Shown here in pieces: positions 1 through 18,781 of a stretch of 64,000 nucleotides of DNA (position 1 is the first letter of the stretch; each line of letters begins with the position of its first letter). The stretch is from Candidatus Eiseniibacteriota bacterium. Its GTDB lineage: Bacteria; Eisenbacteria; RBG-16-71-46. The stretch is taken from NCBI GenBank assembly GCA_038231135.1, contig JBBRLX010000015.1, positions 1 through 64,000 on the forward strand. Reading direction: 5' to 3'. The notes below the pieces were generated by a model. That model was not told the origin of the DNA. It saw only the letters and a program-made list of their open reading frames with translations, and did not search any database. The translations under genes and the position numbers were made by a program.

Positions 1-248
1 CAGTTGCGGACGTTTCAGCGCAGGGTCAAGGAGTGGCGACGTGCAGCGGCGCGCGAGCTCGTCTTCGCATCGGCGCAGGGTGCGGCATAGATACCGGCGC
101 GCTCACGCGGCCGAACTTTGCGGCCCTCTGATCGGCGCCAGCGAGGTGATGCACCGCAACCTGCCTCGCTGGTAACATTCTCAACTGAGGCAACACGTTC
201 CGGGAAAAGTAGTTGTCGCCCATCAAGCGAGCATACGGAGCGATACCC

Positions 249-2684: not shown

Positions 2685-3165
2685 TGGCCCGCCGGCTCAC
2701 GGGCCCTGCGGCAGTCTCCGCTGTCTACTTGTCGGTCATCCACCCGGTCCCATCTGGGGCGCTCATCGCGCATTTCTGGCGCGGAGAGACGGATGTGCAG
2801 ACTGTCCTATAGTCTGCGCGGCCAGACCGGCGAGGACCACAGGTGATTCGGTCTGCTCAATGAGCACTGAATCGACCCGCCCTCGAAGTGAAACTGGATG
2901 ACCGGCCATTCGATCAAACGGTCGATTGGCCGATCCGAAGCAAGCCGAGGGAACATCGACAGAACGCGCAATCCAGACATGACGCCCTGACGGTCTCGTA
3001 ACACATGCCATTGCAATCGATTAGGCGAGCAGTCGCCCTTGACAGCGCGACGAGGACGTGGAAAACTGACCAGCATGTATTCTTCTATCCTCCGCCCTAC
3101 GAAGTCGCCAAAGCTCGGCCGGGAGTCGCTACCGACGAATGGTCCGCTCATTCGAGGACATTGAA

Positions 3166-4761
3166 ATGCCAAATCCAGGAACCGACAACCCTTCACCAGC
3201 GCTCACCCCTCTGCCCAGACACGCGTCGGGTCTTGTGCGCGATTTCGCTTTATGGGACACGTTCGTTTTCAATACGATCGGATTTGCGCTCGGTTTTGTA
3301 ATTGTTCTTGTTCCGGGCCTGCTGGCGAGCACGTTTCCAAGCGCTGACGTACGTCTTGTCCTCGTCTTTGGCACAATTCTGACTCTTTTCAATGGTCTCG
3401 TCTACGGAATGTTTGGCGCGGCAATGCCGCGTTCCGGAGGAGACTATGTCTTCATCGGCCGCGTTCTTACTCCAGCCATCGGATTCATCTCGAGTTGGGG
3501 ATTCACGTGGTCCCAGCTGCTCGGTCTGGGCGTGTACGGGGCCTGGACCATTACGAGTGCTCTCTCCCCCGCACTCATCTCCTTCGGCAATGTGACTGGC
3601 CATCCGGCCCTGACTAATGCTGGCACAGCGGTGGGACAACCCGTCTGGGTATTCGCCCTCGGCACGCTTACGCTTCTTTCCGTCGGCCTCGTACTGCTTC
3701 GGGGAACACGCGTCTTAGTGCGACTTCTAGATGGACTTTTCGTTGTCGCAATAGCCGGAACAGTAGCCATGGGAATCGTCCTTTTTCGCGCGCAACACGC
3801 CGACTTCATCGTCGGACTCCCGAATTTGATGCGCACCTTGGGTCACCCCGAGCTAACATATGGTGGGATTCTAGCGCTTGCAGCGGCTCATGGCTGGGTT
3901 GCCCCTAGCGCTACCGATACCTGGCTTGCTTCACTCAAGGCCCTACCCATCGGGTATTGGGTCTTTGTTGGCTTCACGTTCTCAGTATATGTCGGCGGCG
4001 AAGTCCAGGAGCCACAGCGAACTCAGATTCGCGCCATCCTTGCAGCCCTTTTCTTCGGGTTCATTAGCTACTTCTTCTTGCTCGGCCGCTACTACGACGT
4101 CGTCGGAAAGGATTTCATCAACGCCGTCACATATCTACAGGGGGTACCTCACAGTGGATTACCGGATGGACTTTCCCTCACAGTGTTCTTGGGGGCATTG
4201 AGCCACAACTGGTTCTTGCATGCCCTCATCAATCTCGGCACGGTGATCTGGTTCTACCTTCTGCTGTATGTAATGGCTGCCGTATGCGTTCGGAACCTAT
4301 ATGCGTGGGCCGCCGATGGCTCTGTGCCGCGTAGCTTGGCCCGTCTGGGACGTGGCGGCCCCATCACCGCAACTTTCATCGTCATCGGGATTGCGGTACT
4401 CATGGCAGCGCTGCAAGCCTTTGCTGGAGTAGGCGTTGTGAACTATATAGCCCTGTTTAGCCTTTGCTTTCTTGTCGCGGGGATCGCGGCAATGCTTTAC
4501 CCCTATCGACGGCGGGAACTGTTCCAGAACAGCCCTGCGATGGTCCGCTGGCGCGTTCTCGGACTGCCGCTCATCGTCATCGCAGGGGCTGTTAACACGA
4601 TTCTCTTCGCCGTAGTCCTATGGAGTTCACTTACGAATCCCGGATTCAGCGGGGTACGCGGATTGATTCCAACGATCCTGGTCCTTGCCGTCTACCTGTC
4701 GGGAGCGGCTGTATTCGCGTGGTCGAGGAGACGTACTGGTGAGCTGCCCGAGGCATCGTGA
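3166..4761 (+). CDS. APC-superfamily amino acid permease
   Basis: About 12 hydrophobic segments; AMPRSGGDYVFIGR motif; SD GAGGA before ATG 3166 (alternative start 3139). Confidence 0.9.
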   Translation: MPNPGTDNPSPALTPLPRHASGLVRDFALWDTFVFNTIGFALGFVIVLVPGLLASTFPSADVRLVLVFGTILTLFNGLVYGMFGAAMPRSGGDYVFIGRVLTPAIGFISSWGFTWSQLLGLGVYGAWTITSALSPALISFGNVTGHPALTNAGTAVGQPVWVFALGTLTLLSVGLVLLRGTRVLVRLLDGLFVVAIAGTVAMGIVLFRAQHADFIVGLPNLMRTLGHPELTYGGILALAAAHGWVAPSATDTWLASLKALPIGYWVFVGFTFSVYVGGEVQEPQRTQIRAILAALFFGFISYFFLLGRYYDVVGKDFINAVTYLQGVPHSGLPDGLSLTVFLGALSHNWFLHALINLGTVIWFYLLLYVMAAVCVRNLYAWAADGSVPRSLARLGRGGPITATFIVIGIAVLMAALQAFAGVGVVNYIALFSLCFLVAGIAAMLYPYRRRELFQNSPAMVRWRVLGLPLIVIAGAVNTILFAVVLWSSLTNPGFSGVRGLIPTILVLAVYLSGAAVFAWSRRRTGELPEAS

Positions 4762-5573
4762 GTCTTGAGGGCGACCCACTACCTAGGACATTCCAGTCCA
4801 GCATGACAACCGCAGCCACATTGCTACCAGAGGCTCTTGCGCTCATACAAAACGCAGCAGCGGAGGGTATTGAGCTGCGCCTCTTCGGCAGTCTCGCGAT
4901 CTGGCACCACTGTCCTCGCGCACGTCAATTTGCACAGGCTCGCTGGAACCGAGGCATCGTTGATATCGATCTCGCTGGCAGATCCTCGCAGCAAAGCAGC
5001 GTAGAATCACTTCTCGTCCGCTGGGGATTCGAATTGCACCCGGGCGTTCGATCGATGCCCGATGCAGCTCGCACCGTTTTCCGCGGGCGTGGCGGTGGAC
5101 TTCACGGGGACATCGCCTACGGTCGACTGCGCTTCTCTCACGACCTTCTGATAGAACCTCGCATATTATGCGATGCCCCGACTTTGCCAGTCGCTGAACT
5201 TCTACTATTGAAGCTCCAAATCGTCGATTTTGCGCAAAGGGATCTCTTGGATGCTGCCCAACTTCTCGCCGATCACGAAGTCGCGGACGGAGATTGCGAC
5301 CGAATCAATTTGCACGCAGTCCTGGCATCTGTTCTTCGCGATTGGGGGCTTGCTCACTCTCTGGATCGGAATCTTCTGATACTGCTTAGCGCTGCTCAAG
5401 AAGGGAGCCTTGGGACCTTGCCCGCTGAGGCGCAAGGGCGAGTGATTGAGCGGGCGACGCTTCTTCGTGATCGACTGCAGAGTGCTCCGAAGCCGTTCCG
5501 CTTCCGCATCCGCGCACGTCTTGGCGAGCACGTCCGATGGTATAACCGCGTCAACGAGGTGGGGCCGTGGTAA
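4758..5573 (+). CDS. Uncharacterised protein with nucleotidyltransferase (Pol-beta-like) signature
   Basis: LRLFGSLAI...VDIDL (hGS...DxD), later LLKLQI and RDLLD; GTGA overlap with the permease stop. Confidence 0.6.
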   Translation: MSLEGDPLPRTFQSSMTTAATLLPEALALIQNAAAEGIELRLFGSLAIWHHCPRARQFAQARWNRGIVDIDLAGRSSQQSSVESLLVRWGFELHPGVRSMPDAARTVFRGRGGGLHGDIAYGRLRFSHDLLIEPRILCDAPTLPVAELLLLKLQIVDFAQRDLLDAAQLLADHEVADGDCDRINLHAVLASVLRDWGLAHSLDRNLLILLSAAQEGSLGTLPAEAQGRVIERATLLRDRLQSAPKPFRFRIRARLGEHVRWYNRVNEVGPW

Positions 5574-6532
5574 GGGCGCACACCGATTGGCGCCTGCTCT
5601 TTGTGACGGACTTGCACGGTGCCGAGCGCTGCTTCGAACTTCTCTTAGAACAACTAGCAACCCGCCGCTTTGATGTCGTCGTTGTCGGAGGCGATGTAAC
5701 GGGGAAATTGCTTGTCCCGATCGTTCCAACTGCGCACGGACAATCCGCAGCACATTTCAAGGGCGCCACAGTCCAACTTACTAGTCCATCTGAGACAAAT
5801 ACATTCGTCACGCGCGCCGCAGCTACAGGAGCATATGCATACCCGTGTACTTCCGGGGAGTACTTGCGGCTCTTGAACGACATGCCTTACCGCGAGGCGA
5901 TAATTCAACGCCTGATTGACGATCGACTCGCACGATGGCTAGGCCAATTGCAACGAGTCGCGCGAGCCACTCATATCAAGGTCATTTTCAACCTCGGCAA
6001 CGACGACTCTCTGTCCTGCAATGCTCTGTTTCCTCTAAACAACGTTGAGCTGGCCGAGGGTACTGTAATTGAATTGCTCAACGGGATTAGCATTGCGTCA
6101 TGCGGATATGCCAATGACACGCCATGGCACTTGCCGCGTGACGAGCCCGAGGACAAACTCCACCAACGCCTTCAGACTCTAATCGCTACAGTTGAAGACA
6201 AAGCCCGCCTTATTTGCAACTTTCACGCGCCTCCCTACGCCTCCGGGCTCGACACGGCCATTCTCCTGGAGCCGGATCTTCGCCCCCAGAGTGGAGGCTT
6301 CGGGCCTCTGCGCGGCCCTGTTGGCTCACATGCTGTTGACCGCGTTATTCGTGAGATGCAGCCTTTGCTGGGGCTTCACGGTCACATTCATGAGTCCGCT
6401 GGTCGAGCACGACTTGGACGCACCGTGTGTCTAAATCCAGGGAGTGAATATGAGGCCGGCATTCTGCGTGTCGCTGAATGTGACTTTGAAGGATCCTCTC
6501 TGACACGCGCCTCACTTAAGTCACTTCTGTAG
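5567..6532 (+). CDS. Icc-related calcineurin-like metallophosphoesterase
   Basis: Motifs DLHG, GGDVTG, GNDD, FHAPP, GHIHE, NPGS; overlaps the upstream stop. Confidence 0.88.
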   Translation: MVRAHTDWRLLFVTDLHGAERCFELLLEQLATRRFDVVVVGGDVTGKLLVPIVPTAHGQSAAHFKGATVQLTSPSETNTFVTRAAATGAYAYPCTSGEYLRLLNDMPYREAIIQRLIDDRLARWLGQLQRVARATHIKVIFNLGNDDSLSCNALFPLNNVELAEGTVIELLNGISIASCGYANDTPWHLPRDEPEDKLHQRLQTLIATVEDKARLICNFHAPPYASGLDTAILLEPDLRPQSGGFGPLRGPVGSHAVDRVIREMQPLLGLHGHIHESAGRARLGRTVCLNPGSEYEAGILRVAECDFEGSSLTRASLKSLL

Positions 6533-6851
6533 ACGATGCCGCTGTTGTAAACTCGTCGAAAGTGGGCACAAGCCGAATATCTAGCCGCCCAGCTTCATCG
6601 GCAACCCCGTCCCAGTGCTGCCCTAAACTCCAGTGTCTAACTTGACCAAAGATGCGAGCAAATTCGACGACCGGAGTCGGCCGCACCGTCCAACCCACGA
6701 ATCGTCCTTCCTCAAGTACGATTTCTTTCTGACTAAATCGGTCTCGGACCATCTCTGCAAGGTCTAACACCTCACCCCGCTCAGCGTCAGCATCATGTCC
6801 CCACAGAGTATTATGTTCGTGCTCATCTTGTACGATTGTTCTACTTCCCAC
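6516..6851 (-). CDS. Hypothetical protein (~111 aa)
   Basis: GTG 6851 overlaps the end of the upstream ORF; globular-looking composition; no recognised motif. Confidence 0.4.
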   Translation of the reverse strand: MGSRTIVQDEHEHNTLWGHDADAERGEVLDLAEMVRDRFSQKEIVLEEGRFVGWTVRPTPVVEFARIFGQVRHWSLGQHWDGVADEAGRLDIRLVPTFDEFTTAASSTEVT

Positions 6852-8553
6852 CCCAAAGCCCACGGGCCTCTGCGAACGAGGCCCCGCCAAATAGATCGAC
6901 CATGCGCTTTCTGAGAACATGCTTCACATCGGGGTCTGCCGACAAAGTCAGCGCCCCACTTTGGATCATTCTTGGAATCAGCAAACTCCATCGTGTCGTG
7001 AAGCTCCGATGCCTTAGCCTTTTCTCAAATAACCACCAGCGCGCGAGGCCCAAGGGCGAGAGCGCTGCCTTCTCGCCACTCCCTCCTGGTCGCACATCCA
7101 GTGGTATCCACTCTTCCGAGAGAGACGCGCTTCTAAGCTTGAACGATGGCACTTCCCATTGCATCTCCACGTCCGGAGGAGCCACCTCCACCGACTTCCA
7201 TGTGAGATGGATCCACAATCGCTCCTCATTCTTGCGGGGCTCCAGATCGAAGATGCACGCGATGGAGAGAGCATCCACCAGCATCCTGAACATTGGCACT
7301 GCCAAGACCCACCCGAGTGTTCTGGGGAGCCTCATACTTCTCGTCTTGAAGAGTGGCGTGGCCGTCTCGTTTGGCAGCTCGACCACTACCCGCTCCGACC
7401 ACCTCGGCGACACTTGCCCACGAACAGGTGTCTGTCTCCTTTTTCTGACAAGCAGGTAACTCTCTATCCACGGCAATGACCGACTTGTGTATTGGAAAAT
7501 CTCCAGCGCTCGCTCTTCGCAACCGTTGGCGTCGATCACTAGTAGTGTTCTCGCCGCGTCCTCCAGCCAGGCCAAATCTAGCGTCTCGTGTGGAAACCGC
7601 CGAGACCGCATCGCGATTTCCGACCGAAGGGCTTCTTCACAGCCTTGAGGCGTGAACAGGGCAGGAGTCCATGCCATCCACATCTGGCTGTTCACCGCTT
7701 CCACGGTTGCTGCATGCGGTGAAAGGCAAATTCGGTATCCGTTGAACGGTGCGGGACTGGCCCCCTGCTCCCTGATAGACTTGAGCCGATATTTGAGGAC
7801 GCCGAGAAACAACGCTGCCGCGAGTGTCGCGTGGGGATCGGAAGCAACCGAAGAGTGCAGCTCCGAGAGTCGCAACAATGCGTCGACCTTTGAATTTCCA
7901 TCAGGAGTACGAGCAATGTTGTTTCCGAGCGCTTGGAGTGAGCGCAGGCTACTTGAGCCTTGACTTCCGACGCGGCTCTCGATTTCACGGCAACGGATCG
8001 AGAATGCAAGCGCAGCGCTCGTGGCTTTGCCTGCGAGCTGCGTCTCGTCCGCCTCCACTGGCCAGGCATCGTGGGCTACGACGTGCTGCAAGTACCTGCG
8101 CACTCGCTGAACGGTTTCCGGATCCTCACACAGGCATCCTCCCACTCTCCGCTCAAGAGGCGGGGCGACGACCGCAACGGATCGCGGGCACTGCTCCCAA
8201 GACAGACCGAACGCCCTTCTAAACTCCCCACTCCATCCATTGCCAGGTACAATTGCTATCCGCGGCCAATGCACCGCATCCTGATTGGCGGCGTCGGCAT
8301 TTAGGAGCGCAATTCTCGCGGTATCTACATCGTCCCGATCGATGCCTGACGAATCAGCCGCATCCCTCGCTACCCAAATCAGCACCGCGCGCCGTTGTGC
8401 CGTGGGTGTCGGCGTAGATGTAAACCACAATACCGCGGAGGAAACTGAGGGCGTCTCCGCCATTTCTCTCAGCAGAACGCATGACTTTGTGCCGCTTACG
8501 CCTTGCCTTCGCTCGTCCTCCGCGAATGGACACCGGATACAGGCCGTTGGCAT
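6841..8553 (-). CDS. Hypothetical protein (~570 aa)
   Basis: Long ORF with SD GGGAGG before ATG 8553, 13 nt after the upstream stop; no recognised family. Confidence 0.7.
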   Translation of the reverse strand: MPTACIRCPFAEDERRQGVSGTKSCVLLREMAETPSVSSAVLWFTSTPTPTAQRRAVLIWVARDAADSSGIDRDDVDTARIALLNADAANQDAVHWPRIAIVPGNGWSGEFRRAFGLSWEQCPRSVAVVAPPLERRVGGCLCEDPETVQRVRRYLQHVVAHDAWPVEADETQLAGKATSAALAFSIRCREIESRVGSQGSSSLRSLQALGNNIARTPDGNSKVDALLRLSELHSSVASDPHATLAAALFLGVLKYRLKSIREQGASPAPFNGYRICLSPHAATVEAVNSQMWMAWTPALFTPQGCEEALRSEIAMRSRRFPHETLDLAWLEDAARTLLVIDANGCEERALEIFQYTSRSLPWIESYLLVRKRRQTPVRGQVSPRWSERVVVELPNETATPLFKTRSMRLPRTLGWVLAVPMFRMLVDALSIACIFDLEPRKNEERLWIHLTWKSVEVAPPDVEMQWEVPSFKLRSASLSEEWIPLDVRPGGSGEKAALSPLGLARWWLFEKRLRHRSFTTRWSLLIPRMIQSGALTLSADPDVKHVLRKRMVDLFGGASFAEARGLWGGK

Positions 8554-8566
8554 CCTGACTGCCTCC

Positions 8567-10183
8567 CTAGCTACCCTTTTTGAGCACAATCACAAAGGGC
8601 GACCGCCCATCGGTTTCTTGGTATATGCCCTCGTATCCGCGCCATGCCACAGCCTCGGCCTCCACGATCACTATCCTCTTTGCTCTTCCCAACAATTCCT
8701 CAAGCATCTGATACAATTCAGCATGAAGGTGTTGCTTCTCAGCGCTGTCCGGGCCATCAAATCTTAGTACCAGACCGTCAGGTGTCCGCGTGACGTGTGG
8801 AGCTGTCGCACTCGCCTTGCCGGACATCCCCACCCGCGTAAGCCACGCCAACAGCTCCAAGAAGTAGTGGGACGCTGTATCTATCTCCGGTGGATCGCAC
8901 TTGCCCGTTAGCACCCAGACGGCCTCGTCATTCCCTTCTTCCAGATACTTGCGCAGCGTTGCGCTCTCGAGCTCGCCGCCACCCCCAATACTTTTCCATG
9001 TGCCGTTTGATCCGACCCAGATAGCTAGTCTTAACTGAATCGAGTTGACTTTGATCTCCCGCAATAGGTTTGCCACATCCATCGTGGCTCGGGCAATGAG
9101 AAGCGTCTCCTTCGCACGGAGCACACTGTCATCGGGCTCTTCACCAAATGAGCCTCGGTATACGTCGAGGTGTGATCGGAGTTCGTCGGCCTCATGCATT
9201 GCTGATGCACGCATCTCTTGGTCCGTCCCCGCTAGGTCCTCGAGCAAATCCCTGATCCTCGCGTCGGTGATGATGGATTCGTGGGGACTTTCCGGGAGCA
9301 ATCGGTGGTGCAGACGCGGGCGCGTCGTCCCCAACTCAGAGGCGAGATCCTCAAGCGCACGCCGCAACGTATGGTCCAACCTCTTAAGGCGCTCGCGCCG
9401 CTCCGCGATCAGCCTGTGTTCGCGGCGCAGATCCATGTTCCAAGTCCACACGTGCACCAGAAACGCGCTTCGGAGAATCTGGCGATGCCGCGCCACTTGA
9501 GCCGGCAGGACTGACGGCTTATACCGATAGCCGTACATTGCCCACTGATACGTCTTGAACGTCGTGCCCGCCGGAGGCTGGCTTGTTAGCACTCCTAATA
9601 CCGTCTTAGCGTCAAGGCATGTTGTATATGGCTCTAGGCTTGACCGACCGCCGCTCGCACCAGGCGATTGCGTGCGCAATACAAACCCCTGCACGCTTGC
9701 GCACGACATGAGTGCACCTTTCGCCTTGGCGTCAATAGGCAATACGTCACCAATCGGCTTGTCAGCGTCGAAAGCCCAATCTCTCGCAATCGCTTCCTCG
9801 CGGCCGGGCGCGGCGATTGCCGCGTCCGCTCCAGTCATCGATGCACGCTCAAGGGAGGCCGAGCCGCGTTCTATTGTTCTGTTAATATCACATCTATAGT
9901 GTAATAGCGCGCCCTCGTCTGCAATCATTGTCGTTCGCGCATGGGGCTGGTATGAGTAGAAGCACAACACTGCTTCAATGGCATCGAGTATCTCGTGAGG
10001 CAATGACGCGAGCAGTCCCCGCTGATACTCCGACATGTGGTACGAGGGAGATGCTGAAAATAGCGACTCGTGCAGTGCGAGGTACGTTGGATCCAACACA
10101 CGTCCCTCAGACCAGCGAGCGGCATTGGTATAGAACTCTCCGAGGAGTTCGTCTTCTCTGGCAACCTTGGTGTCATGCTTCAT
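8567..10183 (-). CDS. Hypothetical protein (538 aa), possibly a highly divergent sensor-kinase-like protein
   Basis: Long ORF; central coiled coil ending in an H-box-like LKRLDHTLRRAL; canonical N/G boxes not seen. Confidence 0.65.
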   Translation of the reverse strand: MKHDTKVAREDELLGEFYTNAARWSEGRVLDPTYLALHESLFSASPSYHMSEYQRGLLASLPHEILDAIEAVLCFYSYQPHARTTMIADEGALLHYRCDINRTIERGSASLERASMTGADAAIAAPGREEAIARDWAFDADKPIGDVLPIDAKAKGALMSCASVQGFVLRTQSPGASGGRSSLEPYTTCLDAKTVLGVLTSQPPAGTTFKTYQWAMYGYRYKPSVLPAQVARHRQILRSAFLVHVWTWNMDLRREHRLIAERRERLKRLDHTLRRALEDLASELGTTRPRLHHRLLPESPHESIITDARIRDLLEDLAGTDQEMRASAMHEADELRSHLDVYRGSFGEEPDDSVLRAKETLLIARATMDVANLLREIKVNSIQLRLAIWVGSNGTWKSIGGGGELESATLRKYLEEGNDEAVWVLTGKCDPPEIDTASHYFLELLAWLTRVGMSGKASATAPHVTRTPDGLVLRFDGPDSAEKQHLHAELYQMLEELLGRAKRIVIVEAEAVAWRGYEGIYQETDGRSPFVIVLKKGS

Positions 10184-10302
10184 GCTTTGGCTTCCATAAT
10201 GCCCTTACGCACGTGGCTCTCATCTCGCCCGCCATGGGCTTCCGTGACAGTCGTTCTTGCCCACAACATGCATCATTTAGCGACATCACAACGTGCCGCG
10301 CA

Positions 10303-11823
10303 TTATGAGGGCGACGACTGAGGTACTTCAGCCAGTGTATCACCATGATCTGCTGCCAACTGAACAAGGCGGTCAATATCCTCTTGGCCGGTGCGCGGAT
10401 TGACAAAACAGGCGCGCAAATAGAGGCGGTCCCCGAGTTGCGCTGTGGAGATAAAGTACTCGCCTGAACGCTGAAGCAAGTCCGCAATGCTTCCGTTGAC
10501 GACGTTCAGCCGCGTGTTGGGAAGTTGCCGGTCTAGGTGCGGCAACCCCCTGACTGGATTATAGCGAAACGTCGCTATGCTGAGTCCGGTCGGACCCAAT
10601 TCGAGTTGCTTGAAGTCACGAACGCGGCGCGCAAGGTAACTAGCATTCGCAATGTCCAGCGCGACTGCTTCCCGACAGCCAGCCGTCCCCAGCAACCGAA
10701 GAATGACCCACACTTTCAGCGCGCTGGCTGGGCGGCTGTTCTCAGGTCCGAACTCTGCCAGATCGTCGTGGTCCTTCGATCGTGACAAGTCTTCCGGCAC
10801 GCCAACGCCTGGATAGTAGTAACTCGGACGCGTCGAGAATGTCGATTGCAGCAGTCCTGATCGCCTTATGAATGCACATGCCGCCGGGATCGGAGCATAC
10901 ATCCATTTTTGGGGGTCCATGGTAACCGAATCCGCCCTTGCGAGCTGGTGCAGGTCCTCCGGGACATCCTCTACGCAAGCGGCTGTGGCACCATATGCCC
11001 CGTCTACGTGGAGCCACACCGATTCTTCAGCAGCAATCTCCGAGAGAACTCGAATGGGATCGACGGCGCCTGTGCCCACGGTCCCGGCCGTTGCGAGAAT
11101 CAAGAAGGGCCACCGATCATTCCTGCGATCGTCTGCGATGAGGGCCCGAAGGGCATTCGTCTCCATTCGGAGATCCCCATCTGTCTCCACCCAGCGTATT
11201 GAGTCAGTACCGAGCCCCATGAGCCGCACCGCGCGAACCAACCACCGATGCGCCTCACGAGTCGCGTAGACGGTTGGCCGAGGTCGATTCCTCGGCATGT
11301 TCCCGTCCTTGAGGACGTCCCAATCAGTTGCCTGGGCGCGAATTGCCACGTGTAGACATGCCAAGTTCGCAGCCTCGCCCCCGCCGAGGAAGATGCCTTC
11401 GGTGGCTGGACTTAGCCCAATGAGTTCTCCAAGCCATCGCAACGTCTGCCTTTCGATCAGGGTCACGAGTGGAGCGATACGCCAGAGGGCCACGTTCTGC
11501 CCGAATGAAGATGCAATTAAGTCGGCCAGAGCTCCAGCTGGCGATGGTGCTGAAGTAATGTACGCATTGAATCGTGGATGCCCATTCAATGTTGCGTATC
11601 GCTTGAAGAGATCAAGAACTTCCGAGAACACTTCTTTCGCGCCCTCGCGATTCTTGGGAATGTTCGCGAACCACCGATCAGACGTGAAGAATGGATCCTC
11701 AAAGTTTGGGGTAACTGGGCTGGCACGGAGGTGTCGGAGGTGCTCAGCCACTCCACGCACGAGCTCGACTCCGATCGAAGAGAATTCGTCCGGTCCCAGA
11801 AAGGTTGTCGATTCATTTTCCAT
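10303..11823 (-). CDS. Group II PLP-dependent amino acid decarboxylase (DDC/GAD family)
   Basis: HPRFNAYI, ATAGTVGTGAVD, WLHVDGAYG, DSVTMDPQKW (PLP lysine). Confidence 0.92.
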   Translation of the reverse strand: MENESTTFLGPDEFSSIGVELVRGVAEHLRHLRASPVTPNFEDPFFTSDRWFANIPKNREGAKEVFSEVLDLFKRYATLNGHPRFNAYITSAPSPAGALADLIASSFGQNVALWRIAPLVTLIERQTLRWLGELIGLSPATEGIFLGGGEAANLACLHVAIRAQATDWDVLKDGNMPRNRPRPTVYATREAHRWLVRAVRLMGLGTDSIRWVETDGDLRMETNALRALIADDRRNDRWPFLILATAGTVGTGAVDPIRVLSEIAAEESVWLHVDGAYGATAACVEDVPEDLHQLARADSVTMDPQKWMYAPIPAACAFIRRSGLLQSTFSTRPSYYYPGVGVPEDLSRSKDHDDLAEFGPENSRPASALKVWVILRLLGTAGCREAVALDIANASYLARRVRDFKQLELGPTGLSIATFRYNPVRGLPHLDRQLPNTRLNVVNGSIADLLQRSGEYFISTAQLGDRLYLRACFVNPRTGQEDIDRLVQLAADHGDTLAEVPQSSPS

Positions 11824-11855
11824 GGTCTGTCGGGCTCGCAGGTTGACTCGACTAA

Positions 11856-12883
11856 CTAGCTTAGCGCTGCAATGAAAGAATCTACATCTTCACGAGAGGT
11901 TGACCACGAACACATGAAACGTGCGCCCCCTCCGATGAAGACGTAGTACTTCCATCCGCGTTGACTCAGCTGGGCGTGAAGCTGGGGCGCCATTTCAACG
12001 AACACTGCGTTCGCTTCTACTGGATGAAGGATCCGAACGCCCTTTACCTGGGCGATTTGCTCTGCCAAGTACTTCGCCATGTTGTTTGCCCGTTTCGCGT
12101 AGTCCAACCATACCCCGTTCGTTAGCGCGGCAACCCACGGAGCTGCGAAATAGCGCATCTTGGAGAAAAGGTGTCCAGCCTGCTTGCAACGGTATCCGAA
12201 GTCCACCGCCGCGTCTTGCGCAGCCTTGCTTTGGATGAAAAACACGACTGCCTCTGAGAGTCCAAAGCCGTTCTTTATCATACCGAGACTTAGAACGTCG
12301 ATTCCCCGTTCCCACGTGATCGCCTTCGGTTCGACGCCGAGGGAGGCCACTGAGTTGGCAAACCGAGCGCCATCCATGTGCAGAGCAAGGCCATTCTGTC
12401 GCACCGCTTCGGATATAGCTTCCAGTTCCGCGGGTGAGTATACGGTCCCCAACTCTGTTGCTTGGGAGATGCTTACCACGCGCGGCTTGGGGTAATGAAT
12501 GTCCGTGCGCTTGTGCGCAATGCGTCCAATTTCCATAGGGTCGAGCTTCCCATGGTCACCACCACCCAAGAGGAGCTTTGTGCCGTTGGAGAAGAACTCG
12601 GGTCCACCGCATTCATCAGTCTCAATGTGCGACGATTCGTGGCAAATTACGCTGTGATACGAATTGCAAAGACTCGACAGTGCAAGCGCATTCGCTGATG
12701 TCCCCGTCGGAACGAAAAACACTTCGCAATTTGTGTCAAATAGCTCGCGAACAGCGTTCGCCGCCTGCTCAGTGATGACATCGGTACCGTATGAGGGATG
12801 TAGCCCTGATTCGCACTGAGAAGTGCTGTTGTGGCTTCTGGCGTCATCCCAGCAGTGTTGTCGCTCGCGAATTGCACATTCAT
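11856..12883 (-). pseudogene. ltaE: Low-specificity L-threonine aldolase split by a 1-nt frameshift near 12795
   Basis: N-terminus MNVQFASDNTAG (ATG 12883, SD GGGAGG) lies in one frame; the rest (PSYGTD...TGTSANAL...LHMDGARFAN...KNG) lies in another. Confidence 0.85.
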
Positions 12884-13539
12884 TTTCGCCTCCCGCCCGG
12901 TTCCCCAGTTTGAGACGTCCTAGAGCCAACACCCTCTCAGATGCGCTCACTCGTCCTCGCAACTTCCGCGGTCGCCCCGTCGAGACGAGACGCCGGGCCG
13001 ATACGCTCATTACGGATGACCATGTCAGTGAACTCATCCGCGAGGCAACACGCCTGCGCAGGCCGGGTCACACTGCCCGACTTTCGCGGGGCCAAATTCC
13101 TCCGAGTCGCTCTCTGGTCCGGACCTTCGAGCTCCTCACGCCAGTCTATCCTCGGCGATCGCGATCAGCACACTCTCACTGGAGTACTTACGACGTGAGC
13201 ACCTCGCCCGTCAATCGTGCGAGAATCTGCGCGTCCCGGTCTGATTCAGATCGGGCATCCGGCGGGGGGCAGAGTGTCCGGCTTGCCACCTGGCGCGACT
13301 CAAGGGCGAGGACTGGACGCAAGAGTCAGCTGTTCCCACGAAGGCAGCGGTAGGACGTAAGCGATCCTGATGAACCTGCTGATGACGACGAAGGCCGCCG
13401 ACATACGCCCCTCGCGACTGCCTTCGCGATTTGCCGCTGCGCATCTCGACCGGCACCGACGTGGAACAGCTGGCGCCCCAAGGTTGGACGCAGCACCGCG
13501 AGGCGAAGGTAATCGGCAGCTGCCGGGCGCTCATCCGGT

Positions 13540-13640
13540 AGCTCGGCGCCACTGCTTTGAGACGGCCCGTCCAGACGGGCGCAAGACGATGGTTATACCA
13601 TTTTGTCGACGCTAGTCGGCGCAACGGTCCATGCACGCGG
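13540..13640 (+). pseudogene. Possible decayed C-terminal remnant of a tyrosine integrase
   Basis: GRKTMV / YHFVDASRRN in adjacent frames resembles the GHxxxxMTxxYxH tail and ends at putative arm-site repeats; weak. Confidence 0.25.
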
Positions 13641-13642
13641 TC

Positions 13643-13662
13643 TGGTACCAATCTTGGTACCA
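13643..13662. repeat. TGGTACCA x2 (12-bp period), putative integrase arm-type sites
   Basis: tggtacca-atct-tggtacca, about 130-150 bp from the tRNA-Ser fragment. Confidence 0.5.
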
Positions 13663-13792
13663 CTCAACCTCCCCAACCGGCCATTCGTGTCCCTTCCTGT
13701 CCCCAAAACGAAGGAGCCCCAGCAGGTCATAACCCACTGAGGCTCCATGATTTTCTTCACTATCGGACGCTGCGGCGATTTCTGGCCGTTCA

Positions 13793-13834
13793 GTTTTCAA
13801 GACCGGCGCCTTAAACCACTTGGCCGTCGCGTAC
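13793..13834 (-). pseudogene. tRNA-Ser(UGA) 5' fragment (D arm plus anticodon loop only)
   Basis: Minus strand GGCCAAGTGGTTTAAGGCGCCGGTCTTGAAAAC; no variable arm, T arm or acceptor 3' strand follows. Confidence 0.7.
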
Positions 13835-14080
13835 AACCTGCGAGGTTGAATGGCCCCCTGAGCAGCCGACTCGGCGATGCTCCGGGGTCCAGGTGGTGTT
13901 GTAGGAAGAACCACCCGCATCCGAGCAGCGCTCAAACGACTCACCGTTTTTGCGAAGCGTGAACTCAGCGGTGTCCTTTTCGGCGTCCGACGGATCGTAG
14001 AGCGCGAACAGCGTGCCGGCGCATACTGGACATTGGGCGGTCCTGTCTTCCTGAATTCTCAACGCATTTTCTGTTCTCAT
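13811..14080 (-). CDS. Small hypothetical protein with CPVC motif
   Basis: 89-aa ORF between the two tRNA fragments; weak SD AGGGA. Confidence 0.3.
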   Translation of the reverse strand: MRTENALRIQEDRTAQCPVCAGTLFALYDPSDAEKDTAEFTLRKNGESFERCSDAGGSSYNTTWTPEHRRVGCSGGHSTSQVVRDGQVV

Positions 14081-14092
14081 GAGTCCCTGCCG

Positions 14093-14112
14093 TGTGCCGG
14101 TTTTGTGCCGGT
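14093..14112. repeat. TGTGCCGGT x2 (11-bp period), putative integrase arm-type sites
   Basis: tgtgccggt-tt-tgtgccggt, about 140-160 bp from the tRNA-Tyr break point. Confidence 0.5.
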
Positions 14113-14252
14113 CTCAACATCCCCACGCGGCCGGAGTGGTCCATTTCTGGCCACTCGAGCTCAAGTAGGCGACAACGCAAAAGTCACTGCAGCGACGATA
14201 CTTCAGCGGAATTCCGGTGAATGAGCGGGGCCGCCCGAGTAGGAGCAAATCT

Positions 14253-14293
14253 GATTTACAGTCTGCTCCCTTTGGCCGCTCGGGCACCCCTCC
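14253..14293 (-). pseudogene. tRNA-Tyr(GUA) 5' half, interrupted 2 nt after the anticodon loop (att site)
   Basis: Minus strand GGAGGGGTGCCCGAGCGGCCAAAGGGAGCAGA-CTGTAAA-TC, then AGA instead of TGC; no T arm downstream. Confidence 0.88.
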
Positions 14294-14339: not shown

Positions 14340-14412
14340 AGCTGGCGAAGGGACTTGAACCCCCAACCACCTGATTACAAATCAGGTGCTCTACCAGTTG
14401 AGCTACGCCAGC
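14340..14412 (-). tRNA. tRNA-Thr(UGU)
   Basis: Full cloverleaf: acceptor GCTGGCG/CGCCAGC, anticodon arm CCTGA-TTTGTAA-TCAGG, T loop GGTTCAAGTCC; CCA not encoded. Confidence 0.97.
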
Positions 14413-15057: not shown

Positions 15058-15524
15058 GAAAAGGCAGCTCGCAGTGGACGTTGCGTCTTTCGACCTGGCG
15101 TCCTCTGGAGCTGCCTCTTCCCGAGAGTACAGGGAGTGACCGGGATAAACCCCACTGTGCTCCCGGCTTCGTTGACCGGGCGTATTTGGTTTTTTTGCGA
15201 AACTGCGAACACTAACTACTGACTTGCTACGGGTCGACCGACTGAGCTGCTCTCACCCCCTTCTTCGAGTTTCCTCCGAATCGGAGGATGTTGCTCATGG
15301 TCGGGTTACGAGCCTGGGGCACCCTCTGCTGCCCCAATTTGCGACAACTTTCACATCCGATTTTTTGATCTCAGGGCGATCTTTGTGGGGGTCACCTGGG
15401 TAAGCGAGCCCGATGGAGGTGCAGGACCTGACTCGCCTGCCCCAGGTCAGTGCCTCCGTCCCCTGGGAGGCAGTTCCCCCGCTACATCTACAGATTTGCT
15501 GTGCTGACTGGTCCCGTATCCGAA
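15058..15524 (-). ncRNA. Candidate sigma54-transcribed structured non-coding RNA (~465 nt)
   Basis: Series of hairpins; G-U pairs and a GAAA tetraloop work only on the minus strand; ends in a long stem with UUUU; no SD-led ORF. Confidence 0.6.
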
Positions 15525-15534
15525 GACTCTGCAG

Positions 15535-15550
15535 AGCAGGTCGCATGCCA
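15535..15550 (-). promoter_or_regulatory. Sigma54 -24/-12 promoter
   Basis: TGGCATGCGACCTGCT: GG-N10-GC in the TGGCA(C/T)-N5-(T/C)TGC(A/T) context. Confidence 0.75.
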
Positions 15551-15668
15551 CGCGCATTGCAATGTCCTGAACTGTGTCATGGCACAGCTGTAATCATCTG
15601 TATTACATCGTGTTAGTGGTATGTATCAGAGTGAGGCGACGGCGCTCGTCGGGTGATCTCCAGCACTC

Positions 15669-15774
15669 GGAGTGTTACGGGGGAGGTAACACTCCAAAGC
15701 GGGTAATTCCGTTCCAACTGGCTGGAGCGGATTCGATTACACCAGTGTCACCGATCTGTAACGGGGTAACACTC
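15669..15774. promoter_or_regulatory. Putative enhancer (UAS) sites for the adjacent sigma54 activator
   Basis: Perfect palindrome GGAGTGTTAC-N7-GTAACACTCC (15669-15695), with GTAACACTC repeated at 15766-15774; 120-225 bp upstream of the -24 box, separated from it by an AT-rich tract. Confidence 0.7.
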
Positions 15775-15826
15775 GAACGGGGTACAGATTGAGCGGGAAG
15801 GGTACGGCGGAGAGAATTCGACCGGC

Positions 15827-18250
15827 TTACCGCGACAGGTCGATATTCAGGCGCTTGATGCGCGCGTACAGCGTCTTGCGGCTCACGCCGAGGAGTTCGG
15901 CGACGCGGCTCTTGTTGCCGCCGGCTTCAGCGTAGGCGGCGAGAATCGCCGAACGATCGTCGACCGGCACCGCGGTCAGCACCGGCTGCGGCTCGTGCGC
16001 GAAGAACGGCAGCAGAGTCGCGGCCTCGAGCAGGCCCTCGCCGGCGTGCAGTGCGGCCACCCGCTTCATCACGTTCTCGAGCTCGCGCACGTTGCCGGGC
16101 CACGAATGCGAGGTCAGCATCGACTCCGCGCCGGGGGTCAGCCGCGGTCCCTCGATGCCTCCGTAGAATGCAAGGAAATGCCGCGCCAACGGCACGATGT
16201 CGTGGTGGCGCTCGCGCAGCGGCGGCAGCTGGATCTCGATCTCGTTGAGCCGGAACAATAGATCGCGCCGGAACATCCGCTCGGCGTCGCTGCCGCGAAG
16301 CACGCGGTTCGTCGCGGCGATCAGCCGCACGTCCGCACGCCGCACCTGGGTCTCGCCGAGCCGCAGGTACTCGCCGCTCTCGAGGAATCGCAGCAGCGTG
16401 ACCTGCACGTCGTGCGGCAGCTCGCCCACTTCGTCGAGGAACAGCGTGCCCCCATTGGCGGCTTCCACGAGTCCCATGGCGTCGGCGTGGGCGCCGGTAA
16501 ACGCGCCCTTGCGATGGCCGAACAGCTGCGACAACGCCAGATCCGCGCGCAGCGCGCCGCAGTTGACCGCCAAAAACGGCTTGTTCTGGCGCTGCGACAG
16601 CGTGTGGATCGTGCGGGCGACGAGTTCCTTGCCGGTGCCGGTTTCGCCGGTGACGAGCACCGACAGTTCGGTCGCAGCGGCCCGCCGCGCCAGCGTCTCG
16701 ACGCGGCGCATCTCGGGCGAGCAGGCGACGAGGCCGGGTGCCCGGTGGCGGCGTCCGAGCAGCGAAGCCGGACGCGCGGGTGCCGGGCCCGGTCCGTTCT
16801 TGAGCAGCTCGCTCAGTTCGTCCTCGGCGCGCTCCAGCCAGTAGGGCGTGCTGAGCGTCGCGAACAGCGCGCCCGCCCGGTAGAACCAGCGGCGCGCTTC
16901 GGCGGGATCCGAGCAGGAGTGACCGAGCTCGAGCAGGGTGCGGCCCTGTTCGTAGGGTTCGTGGCAGGCGGCGAGCAGGGTCGCAGCCCGGCGCCGGTCC
17001 TCGAACGCCGCGTCGGTCTGGCCGCGCAGCGCGGCGACCGCTCCCGACGCGCGGTACGTGAGCGCGTATTCCATGCGATCGTCGATCTGGCGCGCAAGTC
17101 GCTGGGCGCGCCGGCACGCGGCATCCGCGGCATCGGCGTTACCGAGCGCCACGAGCGTCTCGGCCCGGCGGCGCTCGAGCTCGACCACGAGGTCGCCCTC
17201 GGGGGCGATGCGTTCGGCCATGGTGAGCGCCTGGTCGTAGCGCTCGATCGCGCGATCGTGGCGGCCGCGATCGTGATCGAGTTCGCCGAGGAATTCGAGC
17301 GCCAGCACTTCCTCGCGCTGCGCCGACTGACTGCGCGCGCGCTCGAGCGCCTCGAGCAGCATGCTCTCGGCCTCCACGAACCGGCGTTCGAGCCGCGCCA
17401 CGTTGCCGAGCCCGATCGCCACCGTGGCGAGCCGCAACTGGTCGCCCACCTGCAGGTAGATCTGCCGGGACTGGCCGAAGCATTCGCCCGCCAGGTCCCA
17501 GCGCCCGCTCTTCTGGTGCACGATGCCGAGATTGATCAGCGCGTTCGCGCTCTCGGCGAACCGCCCGTGGCGCCGGCGGATCTCGAGCGCGGCGGACAGG
17601 TGCGCGATGGCGGCGGACCACTCGCACAGGTTCTTGTGGATCAGCCCCAGATTGTTGCGCACGTAGGCGGTGCTTACTTCGTCACCCACGCGCCCGTAGA
17701 GCACGATCGCCTGCTCGTAGTTCTCGCGGGCCGTGGCGGGGTCCCCTGCGCGATAGGCGATGCGCCCGAGCAGGTTGAGGCCCTGGGCCATGAGTCCGAG
17801 GTCCGCGGCCTGCTGCGCGAGCGCGAGCCCGCGCTCCGCGCTGCTCCGGGAGTCCACGAGGCGGGTGAGCCGGAACAGCGCCTCAGAGCACAGCAGGTGC
17901 AGGCGCGCGCGGGTGGGCACCGAGTCCAGTTGATCCTCGGTGCTCAGCACCTCACGGCAGTGCGCGAGCGCCGCCTGGCAGTTGCCCTGCGCGAGCCGGC
18001 ACGAGATCGCCTTGCTCTCGAGCACGGCACGCTGGACCGCCGGTAGCAGACGAGCCTCCGGCAGCGACAGCAGGCGGTCGATCGTCTCGAGCGCCGGCAC
18101 GTAGCTGTCGGCCTGCATGTACAGGTCGGCGAGCATCCCCAGGTCGGAGATGCCCGCACCCGCGCCTGCCTGACGAGCCAGCGCCAGTCGCTCTTCGAGC
18201 GACGCAATTCGATCGTGTTCGTATCCCGGCACGACGGATCTCCGGTCCAC
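15827..18250 (-). CDS. Sigma54-dependent enhancer-binding protein with N-terminal TPR array and C-terminal Fis-type HTH
   Basis: GETGTGKE, GAFTGA, LFLDEVGE, WPGNVRELEN, GNKSRVAELLGVSRKTLY; about 480 aa of TPR-like repeats; no receiver domain. Confidence 0.95.
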   Translation of the reverse strand: MDRRSVVPGYEHDRIASLEERLALARQAGAGAGISDLGMLADLYMQADSYVPALETIDRLLSLPEARLLPAVQRAVLESKAISCRLAQGNCQAALAHCREVLSTEDQLDSVPTRARLHLLCSEALFRLTRLVDSRSSAERGLALAQQAADLGLMAQGLNLLGRIAYRAGDPATARENYEQAIVLYGRVGDEVSTAYVRNNLGLIHKNLCEWSAAIAHLSAALEIRRRHGRFAESANALINLGIVHQKSGRWDLAGECFGQSRQIYLQVGDQLRLATVAIGLGNVARLERRFVEAESMLLEALERARSQSAQREEVLALEFLGELDHDRGRHDRAIERYDQALTMAERIAPEGDLVVELERRRAETLVALGNADAADAACRRAQRLARQIDDRMEYALTYRASGAVAALRGQTDAAFEDRRRAATLLAACHEPYEQGRTLLELGHSCSDPAEARRWFYRAGALFATLSTPYWLERAEDELSELLKNGPGPAPARPASLLGRRHRAPGLVACSPEMRRVETLARRAAATELSVLVTGETGTGKELVARTIHTLSQRQNKPFLAVNCGALRADLALSQLFGHRKGAFTGAHADAMGLVEAANGGTLFLDEVGELPHDVQVTLLRFLESGEYLRLGETQVRRADVRLIAATNRVLRGSDAERMFRRDLLFRLNEIEIQLPPLRERHHDIVPLARHFLAFYGGIEGPRLTPGAESMLTSHSWPGNVRELENVMKRVAALHAGEGLLEAATLLPFFAHEPQPVLTAVPVDDRSAILAAYAEAGGNKSRVAELLGVSRKTLYARIKRLNIDLSR

Positions 18251-18273
18251 GATGAACGTTGGTCAGCCGGTGA

Positions 18274-18612
18274 TCAGAAATGGAACCAGTAGTTCCGGCT
18301 TCCGATCCACACGGCGTAGAGACGCCACACCATTGCGCTGCCCGCAATCCGGCCGTCACCCACGGCTTGATTCCGGTAGGTCGTGCCACCACGCGACAGC
18401 CCGCCCACACGGATGCCCTTGCTGCGGCCAGCTCCGTCCGGAACGTCTGGGTCGCCCATCCCCGCAGACCCGCCGCCGTCGCTGCCGCCATCCTGGGGGG
18501 TGCCCATGACGGGGTCGGCGGAGGCATGGCGTGCCACCATGGATGAGCTCGCGAGGCACATACCCAGCGCGAGGATGAGGGTCCAATGCCGATTCATTGA
18601 GAATCTCGACAT
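18274..18612 (-). CDS. Small secreted protein / putative signalling pro-peptide (112 aa)
   Basis: SD GAAGG; Sec signal ending ASA; Gly/Asp-rich segment with GDPDVPD; aromatic C-terminal tail; stops 23 nt before the activator gene. Confidence 0.7.
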   Translation of the reverse strand: MSRFSMNRHWTLILALGMCLASSSMVARHASADPVMGTPQDGGSDGGGSAGMGDPDVPDGAGRSKGIRVGGLSRGGTTYRNQAVGDGRIAGSAMVWRLYAVWIGSRNYWFHF

Positions 18613-18752
18613 GTAAGCCCTTCCGTTGAACATCGAACACATTTCACCGGTCTCGGTGCGAATGAGCGAAAACCCCACTTCTGCAGCAGGATCGAAGGTT
18701 GGATACGGGTGAGCCTTCGAACTCGCGTCACAAGGGGGGATTTCGTTCTCTG

Positions 18753-18781
18753 AGGCTAGTCCTCGTATACGGACATGGCAA
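18753..18781 (-). promoter_or_regulatory. Putative sigma70 promoter for the peptide-activator operon
   Basis: TTGCCA-17nt-TAGCCT. Confidence 0.5.

Follow-up and report, generated by a model that had tools for sequence, protein, structure and literature searches.

An apparently undescribed, conserved cassette of Candidatus Eisenbacteria combines a predicted exported protein, a TPR-sigma54 activator and a predicted non-coding RNA of a new family

Contig JBBRLX010000015.1 of a Candidatus Eiseniibacteriota genome (GCA_038231135.1) carries, within the 64,000-nucleotide stretch analysed here (positions 1 to 64,000; the window), a cassette in which a small protein of exported type, the pro-protein, is encoded directly ahead of an activator of sigma54-dependent transcription built on tetratricopeptide repeats (TPRs), and in which a sigma54 promoter beyond the activator gene points into a predicted non-coding RNA. 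Our analysis indicates that this is a real, conserved and apparently undescribed regulatory unit with a new RNA family. A preliminary description, made from the DNA letters, had proposed a peptide-sensing circuit with an RNA output; its architecture stands, whereas the pairing that we predict between the RNA and its own operon had been overlooked.

On re-reading the sequence, all the elements that had been listed were found at their positions on the minus strand (Table 1). Promoter, leader, pro-protein and activator read as a single operon-like unit, with two enhancer-like sites and then a -24/-12 box beyond it. The sigma70-like promoter described ahead of the small open reading frame (ORF) is borne out by its homologues, with a TTGnnn-16/18-TAnnnT match in the same place in 49 of 50 scored loci (the match in locus L154 lies elsewhere); a simple sigma70 scan, which listed 0 sites, has no entry for it. 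The frame given for the activator is correct, but not its start: 807 aa had been counted from GTG 18250, and GTG 18232, which gives 801 aa, is most likely the start because a GGAG lies 7 nt upstream, this arrangement is conserved and the public gene call is also 801 aa. The 23-nt gap reported after the small ORF is likewise better read as 41 nt, from its stop to GTG 18232.

Table 1. Features of the cassette in the window (+/-: strand; a point marks features given without a strand).
Feature	Positions	Strand	Basis
Sigma70-type operon promoter, TTGCCA-17-TAGCCT	18753..18781	-	sequence; position and consensus TTGAC/TAGCCT kept in homologues
Structured 5' leader	18613..18745	-	predicted folds
Leader loop motif CCCGTATCC, predicted target of the RNA 5' tail	18701..18709	-	sequence complementarity
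Predicted exported pro-protein, 112 aa	18274..18612	-	by eye and hydropathy
Codons of the invariant GDPDVP motif	18439..18456	-	alignment
Activator ribosome-binding region, predicted second target, complementary to the RNA core	18240..18255	-	modal letters
TPR-AAA+-Fis sigma54 activator, 801 aa (807 aa from upstream GTG 18250)	15827..18232	-	Pfam
Distal enhancer-like site, TGTYAC / GTRACA half-sites, ~-220	15744..15774	-	site clustering; predicted binding
Proximal palindrome GGAGTGTTAC-N7-GTAACACTCC, predicted activator binding site, ~-140	15669..15695	.	sequence
AT-rich tract, possible IHF-type bending site	15589..15626	.	AT peak at -60
Sigma54 -24/-12 promoter, TGGCA-N7-TGC	15536..15550	-	conserved box
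Predicted non-coding RNA, ~467 nt	15058..15524	-	fold, conservation; predicted ends
RNA 5' tail GGATACGGG, reverse complement of the leader loop	15513..15521	-	complementarity
Exposed CACCTCC (anti-Shine-Dalgarno-like) loop	15415..15422	-	51/67 RNAs; unpaired 0.76
A-rich stretch and invariant core AATACGCCCGGTCAACGAAG	15167..15195	-	core invariant at all bases (68 rows chosen by 18-mer)
Covarying hairpin, second CCCGGT in loop	15121..15166	-	covariation
3' stem-loop with short U-rich end, probable terminator or processing stem	15058..15120	-	covariation

The cassette is kept as a unit. An invariant 18-nt motif of the RNA occurs at 78 GTDB loci, 73 of which have a TPR-sigma54 activator just upstream; the other five lack both the activator and a second CCCGGT and look like chance matches. 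Eleven of the 73 end before the small ORF, and 61 of the remaining 62 have an intact 101-129-aa signal-peptide ORF with the sequence GDPD, the last being frameshifted. When 30 loci were collected through protein search rather than by motif, the GDPD ORF lay upstream in 29 (one is at a contig end) and a 17-mer of the RNA core downstream in all 30. A metagenome replicate, some records of which overlap the GTDB set, has activator and box in 46 of the 47 loci with enough upstream DNA and GDPD in all 22 that are long enough. The genomes are related by descent, and these counts, like those below, measure conservation and are not independent trials. The synteny of small ORF, activator, palindrome and -24/-12 box, which the preliminary description had set as a test, is near-universal across related loci. 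The relatives are Candidatus Eisenbacteria, and among the matches listed exact copies of the core come only from two families of this order; viral contigs gave 0 matches. Five loci with the full cassette (L102, L123, L134, L138, L139) bear the titles Terriglobales, Saccharimonadaceae, Verrucomicrobiia, Udaeobacter and Limnocylindria, which are probably mislabels and not transfer because the four of them that were in the tree nest inside the Eisenbacteria clade. One genome (G012) has two copies, L012 and L149, one with a frameshifted activator.

The association between a secreted-type ORF and a TPR activator reaches beyond this locus. In this genome the three TPR activators with upstream DNA all follow a secreted-type ORF with G[DE]PD (a fourth is at a contig end), whereas none of the 16 other sigma54 activators does. 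TPR-domain profile matches, not every one of them inspected, occur in 204 of the phylum's 206 genomes. Twenty paralogous or distant loci were considered, and 15 of the 16 that were scorable carry upstream a secreted-type ORF with an acidic-Pro motif; a further 25 loci, two of them repeats of earlier ones, all have a secreted-type ORF. The motifs are clade-specific (GDPD, GEPD, GGPDD, SPDETL, KGDGDG), and in several of these loci the activator precedes a sigma54 box of its own and another kind of non-coding element. A secreted-type ORF of 95-96 aa, containing GEPD or GDPD, lies ahead of each of the paralogues at G000:C15:76562-80025 (outside the window) and G000:C23:26192-28998; after the former come a sigma54 box of the CGGCAC type and a non-coding stretch that starts GGAGGGGGGGGACCTCC, with similar starts in L208, L209 and L211. 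Orthologous-looking activators in families f2 (L036, L037, L039) and f18 (L195, L199, L201, L205) are also followed by sigma54 boxes, and then by unrelated, lineage-specific conserved non-coding elements (with a duplicated motif in f2) for which eight loci gave no Rfam match.

Downstream of the activator lies the perfect palindrome that had been reported, with 10-bp arms and a 7-nt spacer, which is the sole TGTTAC-N4-12-GTAACA site in the 4.09-Mb genome. We found, in addition, a second enhancer-like site upstream of it, and across 72 loci half-site matches cluster at -220 (41) and -140 (35). An IHF-like match is present in 37/72 loci against 3/72 in a control that was not AT-matched. The GG-N10-GC box that had been reported is part of a TGGCA-N7-TGC element present in 72 of 73 GTDB loci, the remaining locus having CGGCA. 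The genome encodes rpoN, and the -24/-12 promoter has predicted dyad sites upstream, as for a bacterial enhancer-binding protein (bEBP); we regard the step from activator to RNA as very probable.

The RNA has 67 homologues of 297-543 nt and folds better than shuffled sequences (z -3.44; mean z -4.5 in 23 homologues). No Rfam family matched it, and the genome's 6S RNA and tmRNA lie elsewhere. The region had been called ORF-less, which is not literally so; short ORFs are listed in it, none is conserved, and their lengths scatter from 0 to 107 aa in the 67 homologues. A hidden peptide was rejected, with an ATG near a Shine-Dalgarno (SD)-like element in only 11/65 RNAs and no conserved frame. The two 3' hairpins covary in 68 aligned regions, with 94% of cells paired and two-sided changes in 13 of 20 pairs; none of 500 shuffles reached this score and slid controls pair at most 56%, for a structure derived from the tested alignment itself, which favours that structure. 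This covariation backs the small RNA (sRNA) type of output that had been proposed. The 3' stem-loop was not listed by a terminator scan. CCCGGU stands twice in the RNA, with one copy in the invariant, A-rich core and a second, present in 73/73 GTDB and 117/120 metagenome loci, in the hairpin loop. At window 15303-15314 and 15252-15262 are two further elements, a conserved CTCGTA(C/A)CC hexaloop hairpin (53/67 RNAs), which is a potential pairing partner of the 5' tail of the same RNA, and an SD-like GGGGTGA (65/67) without a conserved start codon after it. One soil metatranscriptome (0.15 word share) contains a 468-nt contig over the small ORF and activator start and, from a relative, a 474-nt contig matching 15110-15197; neither is counted as evidence, strand, ends and DNA origin being undecidable from contigs.

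The 5' tail of this RNA is complementary to the leader of its own operon. The leader is predicted to form a long hairpin (~18745-18667), whose span has a median of 90 nt over 48 homologues; a U-rich stretch often comes next, and 20/48 homologues have at least five T at the stem base. The complementary motif sits within the hairpin loop, with a mean unpaired probability of 0.76 against 0.39 for the leader (52 loci). Sixty-one loci were scored, three more having been dropped for want of a findable promoter, and 50 have a perfect tail-leader match of at least 8 bp, a length never reached by the controls (reversed leaders, 0/61; an internal RNA 16-mer, 0/59). In the 39 loci with the strict motif one pair is A:T in 34 and G:C in five, with no discordant case, and a second pair is altered on both sides in L135 and L137. 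In a quick tree built from 51 activator rows these double changes occupy three separate places, namely L135, L139 and a subclade of family f3, which suggests that compensatory changes arose at least three times. Furthermore, both sides are lost jointly in L088/L097, L107/L151 and L116/L158, and one-sided changes mostly retain G-U pairing. Among the 14 metagenome loci that could be scored, 12 have a match of at least 8 bp, and eight more loci inspected by hand include two concordant variants, two standard pairs and one loss of both sides. Taken together, these patterns argue that the RNA 5' tail probably pairs with the leader loop. The RNAs of other lineages gave, among the 14 of 20 loci listed, best tail-leader matches of 7-9 nt in scattered places, which were not convincing.

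The core of the RNA may also pair over the activator ribosome-binding site (RBS), a weaker proposal that concerns one family. In the 48 of 61 loci where the SD was found, the modal letters TCGTTGACC-GG before the activator GGAG are the complement of the core, the mean duplex energy is -15.4 versus -9.8 kcal/mol and 31/48 loci have p<0.05; of the 2482 start regions in this genome, the site takes only rank 238. That the CCCGGU seeds are duplicated and invariant implies that the RNA has other targets or a partner protein, and searches for such targets gave the following. Feedback on the pro-protein's own RBS was rejected, GACCGGG being absent there, and genome-wide GACCGGG occurs at 5 of 1720 crude start regions, similar to control 7-mers. 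The 10-nt core complement is equally common in family f2, whose genomes lack the RNA. In five relatives (a subset of matches) 60 sites fell in 59 of 60 stretches, mostly on the non-coding strand of genes, with no shared untranslated target. A coding site in hpf was found in only one of 10 parseable loci (30 fetched), and the leader of a cytochrome c gene was set aside, because in many loci the RNA is followed by tRNA-Thr and that gene is absent there. The csrA leader was also rejected; GACCGG is found in 1/30 leaders, and the site here lies upstream of the csrA promoter, which we take to be sigma28-like. At G000:C1:164849-165200 csrA stands behind a promoter, TCAAG/TAAAG-N15-GCCGATA, that is conserved in most of the 30 leaders; a short ORF after it resembles the FlgM C-terminus by eye, and a FliA-like gene is nearby. 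Eisenbacteria CsrA is predicted to be rarely functional in the assay of one study, according to the available text (PMC13443453).

After a predicted signal peptide (residues 1-32) the pro-protein has a linker rich in Gly and Pro, the motif GDPDxP at 53-58, a second, variable linker and, at its C-terminus, a basic amphipathic helix; it has no Pfam or NCBIfam family. Its 51 orthologues are of 101-129 aa. By eye and hydropathy the signal peptide shows a basic N-region, a hydrophobic core (12-residue hydropathy 1.97-3.18) and A-S-A at 30-32; 42 of 52 rows have Ala32 where cleavage is predicted, and there is no lipobox. These features suggest export through Sec with cleavage after Ala32. The signal N-region is unusually conserved (R3, F4, N7, R8, W10). 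G53, D54, P55, D56 and P58 are invariant in all 52 aligned rows, which were chosen for GDPD; the unbiased count is 61/62. The C-terminal helix is basic and aromatic, with F or R as final residue in 39/51, and with a 19-residue hydropathy of 0.14-1.49 it is for the most part too polar for a membrane span. Its sequence is not common to the paralogues, whereas the acidic-Pro motif is. Another ORF of secreted type, of 93 aa with a signal, a Gly-rich linker and an aromatic basic tail and without GDPD, lies at G000:C14:73579-73860, just downstream of a different sigma54 activator with an apparently split frame.

Pfam assigns the activator a TPR array, Sigma54_activat (E 1e-61) and HTH_8 and no receiver domain, in agreement with the preliminary description, which had named the TPRs, an intact GAFTGA in the AAA+ domain and a Fis helix-turn-helix (HTH). 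Walker A and B motifs, GAFTGA (51/52 orthologues; GAYTGA in one) and a C-terminal HTH are those of a bEBP, and the NCBIfam bEBP models match only the AAA+/HTH part, all below cut-off. The N-terminal 485 residues were modelled as a TPR superhelix (predicted local distance difference test score, pLDDT, 93.8), the TPR part being of ~480 aa. Its best structural matches are generic protein- or peptide-binding superhelices such as LGN and OGT; NprR chains match weakly by profile (E 4e-6 and 6e-6) and are not nearer than generic TPR proteins, which also dominated a search of representative proteins, and ESM Atlas matches are of Eisenbacteria clusters only. Conserved Arg/Lys and Asn residues (R161, K200, N234, K241, R280, R354, R355, R394) lie on the groove-forming A helices, as placed by TPR numbering and not by coordinates. 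By analogy with known TPR receptors, the array may bind a peptide. The host is a diderm, as had been proposed, with LpxC and Omp85 proteins beside rpoN, csrA, 6S and tmRNA, and its genome encodes five SBP_bac_5 peptide-binding proteins; neither Hfq nor ProQ was found in it, the genome being 93% complete.

These data are consistent with a model, our best explanation though a tentative one, in which export, processing and re-import of the small protein set the activator. The protein would be exported through Sec and cut after Ala32, and a short acidic peptide around GDPDxP would be released, taken up from the periplasm by an oligopeptide ATP-binding cassette (ABC) transporter and, like the peptides of NprR or PlcR, bound in the groove of the TPR array. 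Binding would relieve inhibition of the AAA+ domain and the sigma54 promoter would open, as suggested by what is known of the bEBP family. The RNA tail would then pair with the leader loop, for which the compensatory changes speak, and the core perhaps over the activator RBS. Both pairings would be expected to dampen the operon, as Qrr does with luxOU, the sign being an expectation by analogy, and the duplicated CCCGGU seeds may act on further targets or a protein partner. We favour this model because of the coupling of the parts (73/78 and 61/62, with 46/47 and 22/22 in metagenomes), its specificity (3/3 versus 0/16), its breadth in the phylum, the conserved groove residues, the five SBP_bac_5 proteins, the RNA covariation and the tail-leader pairing. 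It is possible, though doubtful, that peptide quorum sensing of this kind is phylum-wide in these diderms, each TPR-sigma54 activator reading its own re-imported acidic peptide and firing a dedicated Hfq-independent RNA, here with feedback at the leader (possibly by attenuation) and the RBS.

Several observations weigh against this model. The pro-protein, at 101-129 aa, is longer than validated RRNPP propeptides (21-50 aa; PMC10075063), and a simple pheromone would have no need of its conserved C-terminal helix. In a diderm, Sec export leads only as far as the periplasm, and no path through the outer membrane was found. The order-wide invariance of GDPD and its sharing with paralogues suit a processing site as well as a specific signal. 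A mirror-tree comparison does not set the GDPD flanks apart (partial r up to 0.17); it is the signal peptide and C-terminal helix that track the N-terminal half of the TPR array (0.42-0.54), which shared ancestry can explain. The A helices carry many conserved acidic residues in addition to the basic ones. On the RNA side, energy shuffles of the tail-leader duplex give p<0.05 in just 14/50 loci, the tail is predicted to be partly paired (accessibility 0.35 versus 0.34 for the rest of the RNA), three of the eight hand-checked metagenome loci have a one-sided mismatch, and family f3 retains the core without the RBS match.

The main alternative, which we consider rather unlikely, is that the cassette monitors the envelope or secretion of a single cell. 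A small protein retained in or on the inner membrane, by a signal anchor, the C-terminal amphipathic helix or both, would hold or release the TPR activator in the manner of PspA and PspF, and GDPD would be a periplasmic cleavage or stress-sensing site and not a ligand; promoter, RNA and feedback would be unchanged. The conserved basic, aromatic C-terminal helix with its terminal F or R, the unusual conservation of the signal N-region and the mirror-tree result, in which helix and signal peptide exceed the GDPD flanks, would all fit such a partner, and translational coupling in one operon suits a 1:1 complex. Yet the A-x-A-type site with its Ala32 predicts cleavage, the helix is for the most part not hydrophobic enough to span the membrane, and it is the acidic-Pro motif, not the helix, that the paralogues share.

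It is improbable that the small protein is simply exported as a product or as a substrate, for instance one in which a protease or a modifying enzyme recognises GDPD, and is co-expressed with the activator without signalling to it, while the TPR array senses another protein. The link between the two proteins rests on sequence association, invariance of GDPD fits an enzyme recognition site and generic superhelices are the best structural matches of the array; against this, the pairing is kept across paralogues and distant families despite changing neighbours and is absent from bEBPs without TPRs. The least probable alternative, that the RNA is mainly a protein sponge like CsrB or CrcZ and the complementary 9-mers an inverted DNA binding site at two promoters, could draw on the length of the RNA, its A-rich single-stranded stretch and duplicated motif, the presence of csrA in 59/61 genomes of the order and the failure to find an mRNA target in trans, but GGA is not enriched (10.3 versus 10.9 per RNA in shuffles; ANGGA 1.5 versus 2.3), and therefore the RNA is not CsrB-like, Hfq and ProQ were not found, and the leader motif lies in a predicted hairpin loop where most one-sided changes keep G-U, as RNA pairing predicts.

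The re-imported peptide that we favour recalls the RRNPP systems (Rap-Phr, NprR-NprX, PlcR-PapR, AimR-AimP), in which a small Sec-type precursor gene likewise adjoins that of a cytoplasmic TPR regulator. Their signature is a propeptide of 10-100 aa, Sec export, a receptor of 250-500 aa, TPRs and adjacent genes (PMC10075063, available text). Here the TPRs and the gene adjacency (61/62, 22/22) are found and export through Sec is suggested by sequence features, whereas the propeptide (112 aa) and the receptor (801 aa), two of the five, fall outside, and because both lengths fail the cassette is not an RRNPP member by this signature. It also differs in the C-terminal AAA+ sigma54 domain and Fis HTH of its receptor, in the internal motif and C-terminal helix of its longer precursor, in its host, a diderm outside Firmicutes, and in its sRNA output.

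On the output side LuxO had been named as the precedent; the sRNA output agrees with it, but closer known matches exist in cbrB-crcZ of Pseudomonas (PMC5113210) and nla19-pxr of Myxococcus (PMC5568312), where, as far as these sources describe them, an sRNA gene with a -24/-12 promoter lies directly 3' of a sigma54 activator gene. CrcZ is also long. These activators are kinase-fed response regulators, whereas here the TPR array is the only input domain and, by Pfam, the N-terminal receiver of NtrC, LuxO and CbrB is absent. Neither RNA has sequence or Rfam similarity to ours, and CrcZ sequesters Hfq (PMC5113210), which was not found here. In Vibrio a sigma54 activator, LuxO, also drives sRNAs that pair with the activator's own mRNA as feedback; in contrast, LuxO is phosphorylated via membrane receptors of small-molecule autoinducers and Qrr needs Hfq (PMC2632942, in the part available). 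In our cassette it is a 5' tail that would meet a leader hairpin loop ~90 nt upstream of the first gene, with a possible second site. The cassette may thus be likened to an RRNPP pair wired to a cbrB-crcZ, nla19-pxr or LuxO-Qrr output.

Recognition between a loop and a tail is familiar from antisense systems such as hok/sok and the RNA-IN/OUT pair of IS10, and antisense attenuation from pT181. There too a single-stranded 5' end meets an exposed loop, and a U-rich stretch often follows our leader hairpin; unlike the 9-12 bp predicted here with a gene 3.2 kb away, those RNAs are cis-encoded and fully complementary.

The layout with an sRNA after its activator (PMC5113210, PMC5568312) and sRNA feedback on activator mRNA (PMC2632942) are already known in the text available from these sources; what appears new is an RNA 5' tail complementary to a hairpin loop in its operon's own leader. 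A search of literature listings and the openings of abstracts, with subscription journals largely uncovered, found no description of the cassette, and look-ups for this RNA or its leader pairing found nothing. In a term search of the available text of a sigma54 regulon survey (PMC12316311), TPR appears once, in another context, and Eisenbacteria nowhere.

Elsewhere in the window, a tRNA-Tyr (14250-14292) after tRNA-Thr (14340-14412) stops past its anticodon arm. Beyond it the GC content is ~57% versus ~70% on the other side, and window 1-14250 is probably an element integrated into tRNA-Tyr; this side holds a threonine-aldolase-like gene, a pyridoxal-phosphate (PLP) decarboxylase gene and two large ORFs without a Pfam match.

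Intracellular TPR receptors of peptides have been described for Firmicutes and mobile elements, and sigma54-driven sRNAs under kinase-fed response regulators. The RNA described here is a family absent from Rfam, and natural compensatory variants accompany its predicted tail-leader pairing. If the model is true, the cassette, by joining the two, would give sigma54 activation a new kind of input, found in almost all genomes of an uncultured diderm phylum, and would offer a first handle on cell or envelope signalling in the Eisenbacteria of soil and sediment.

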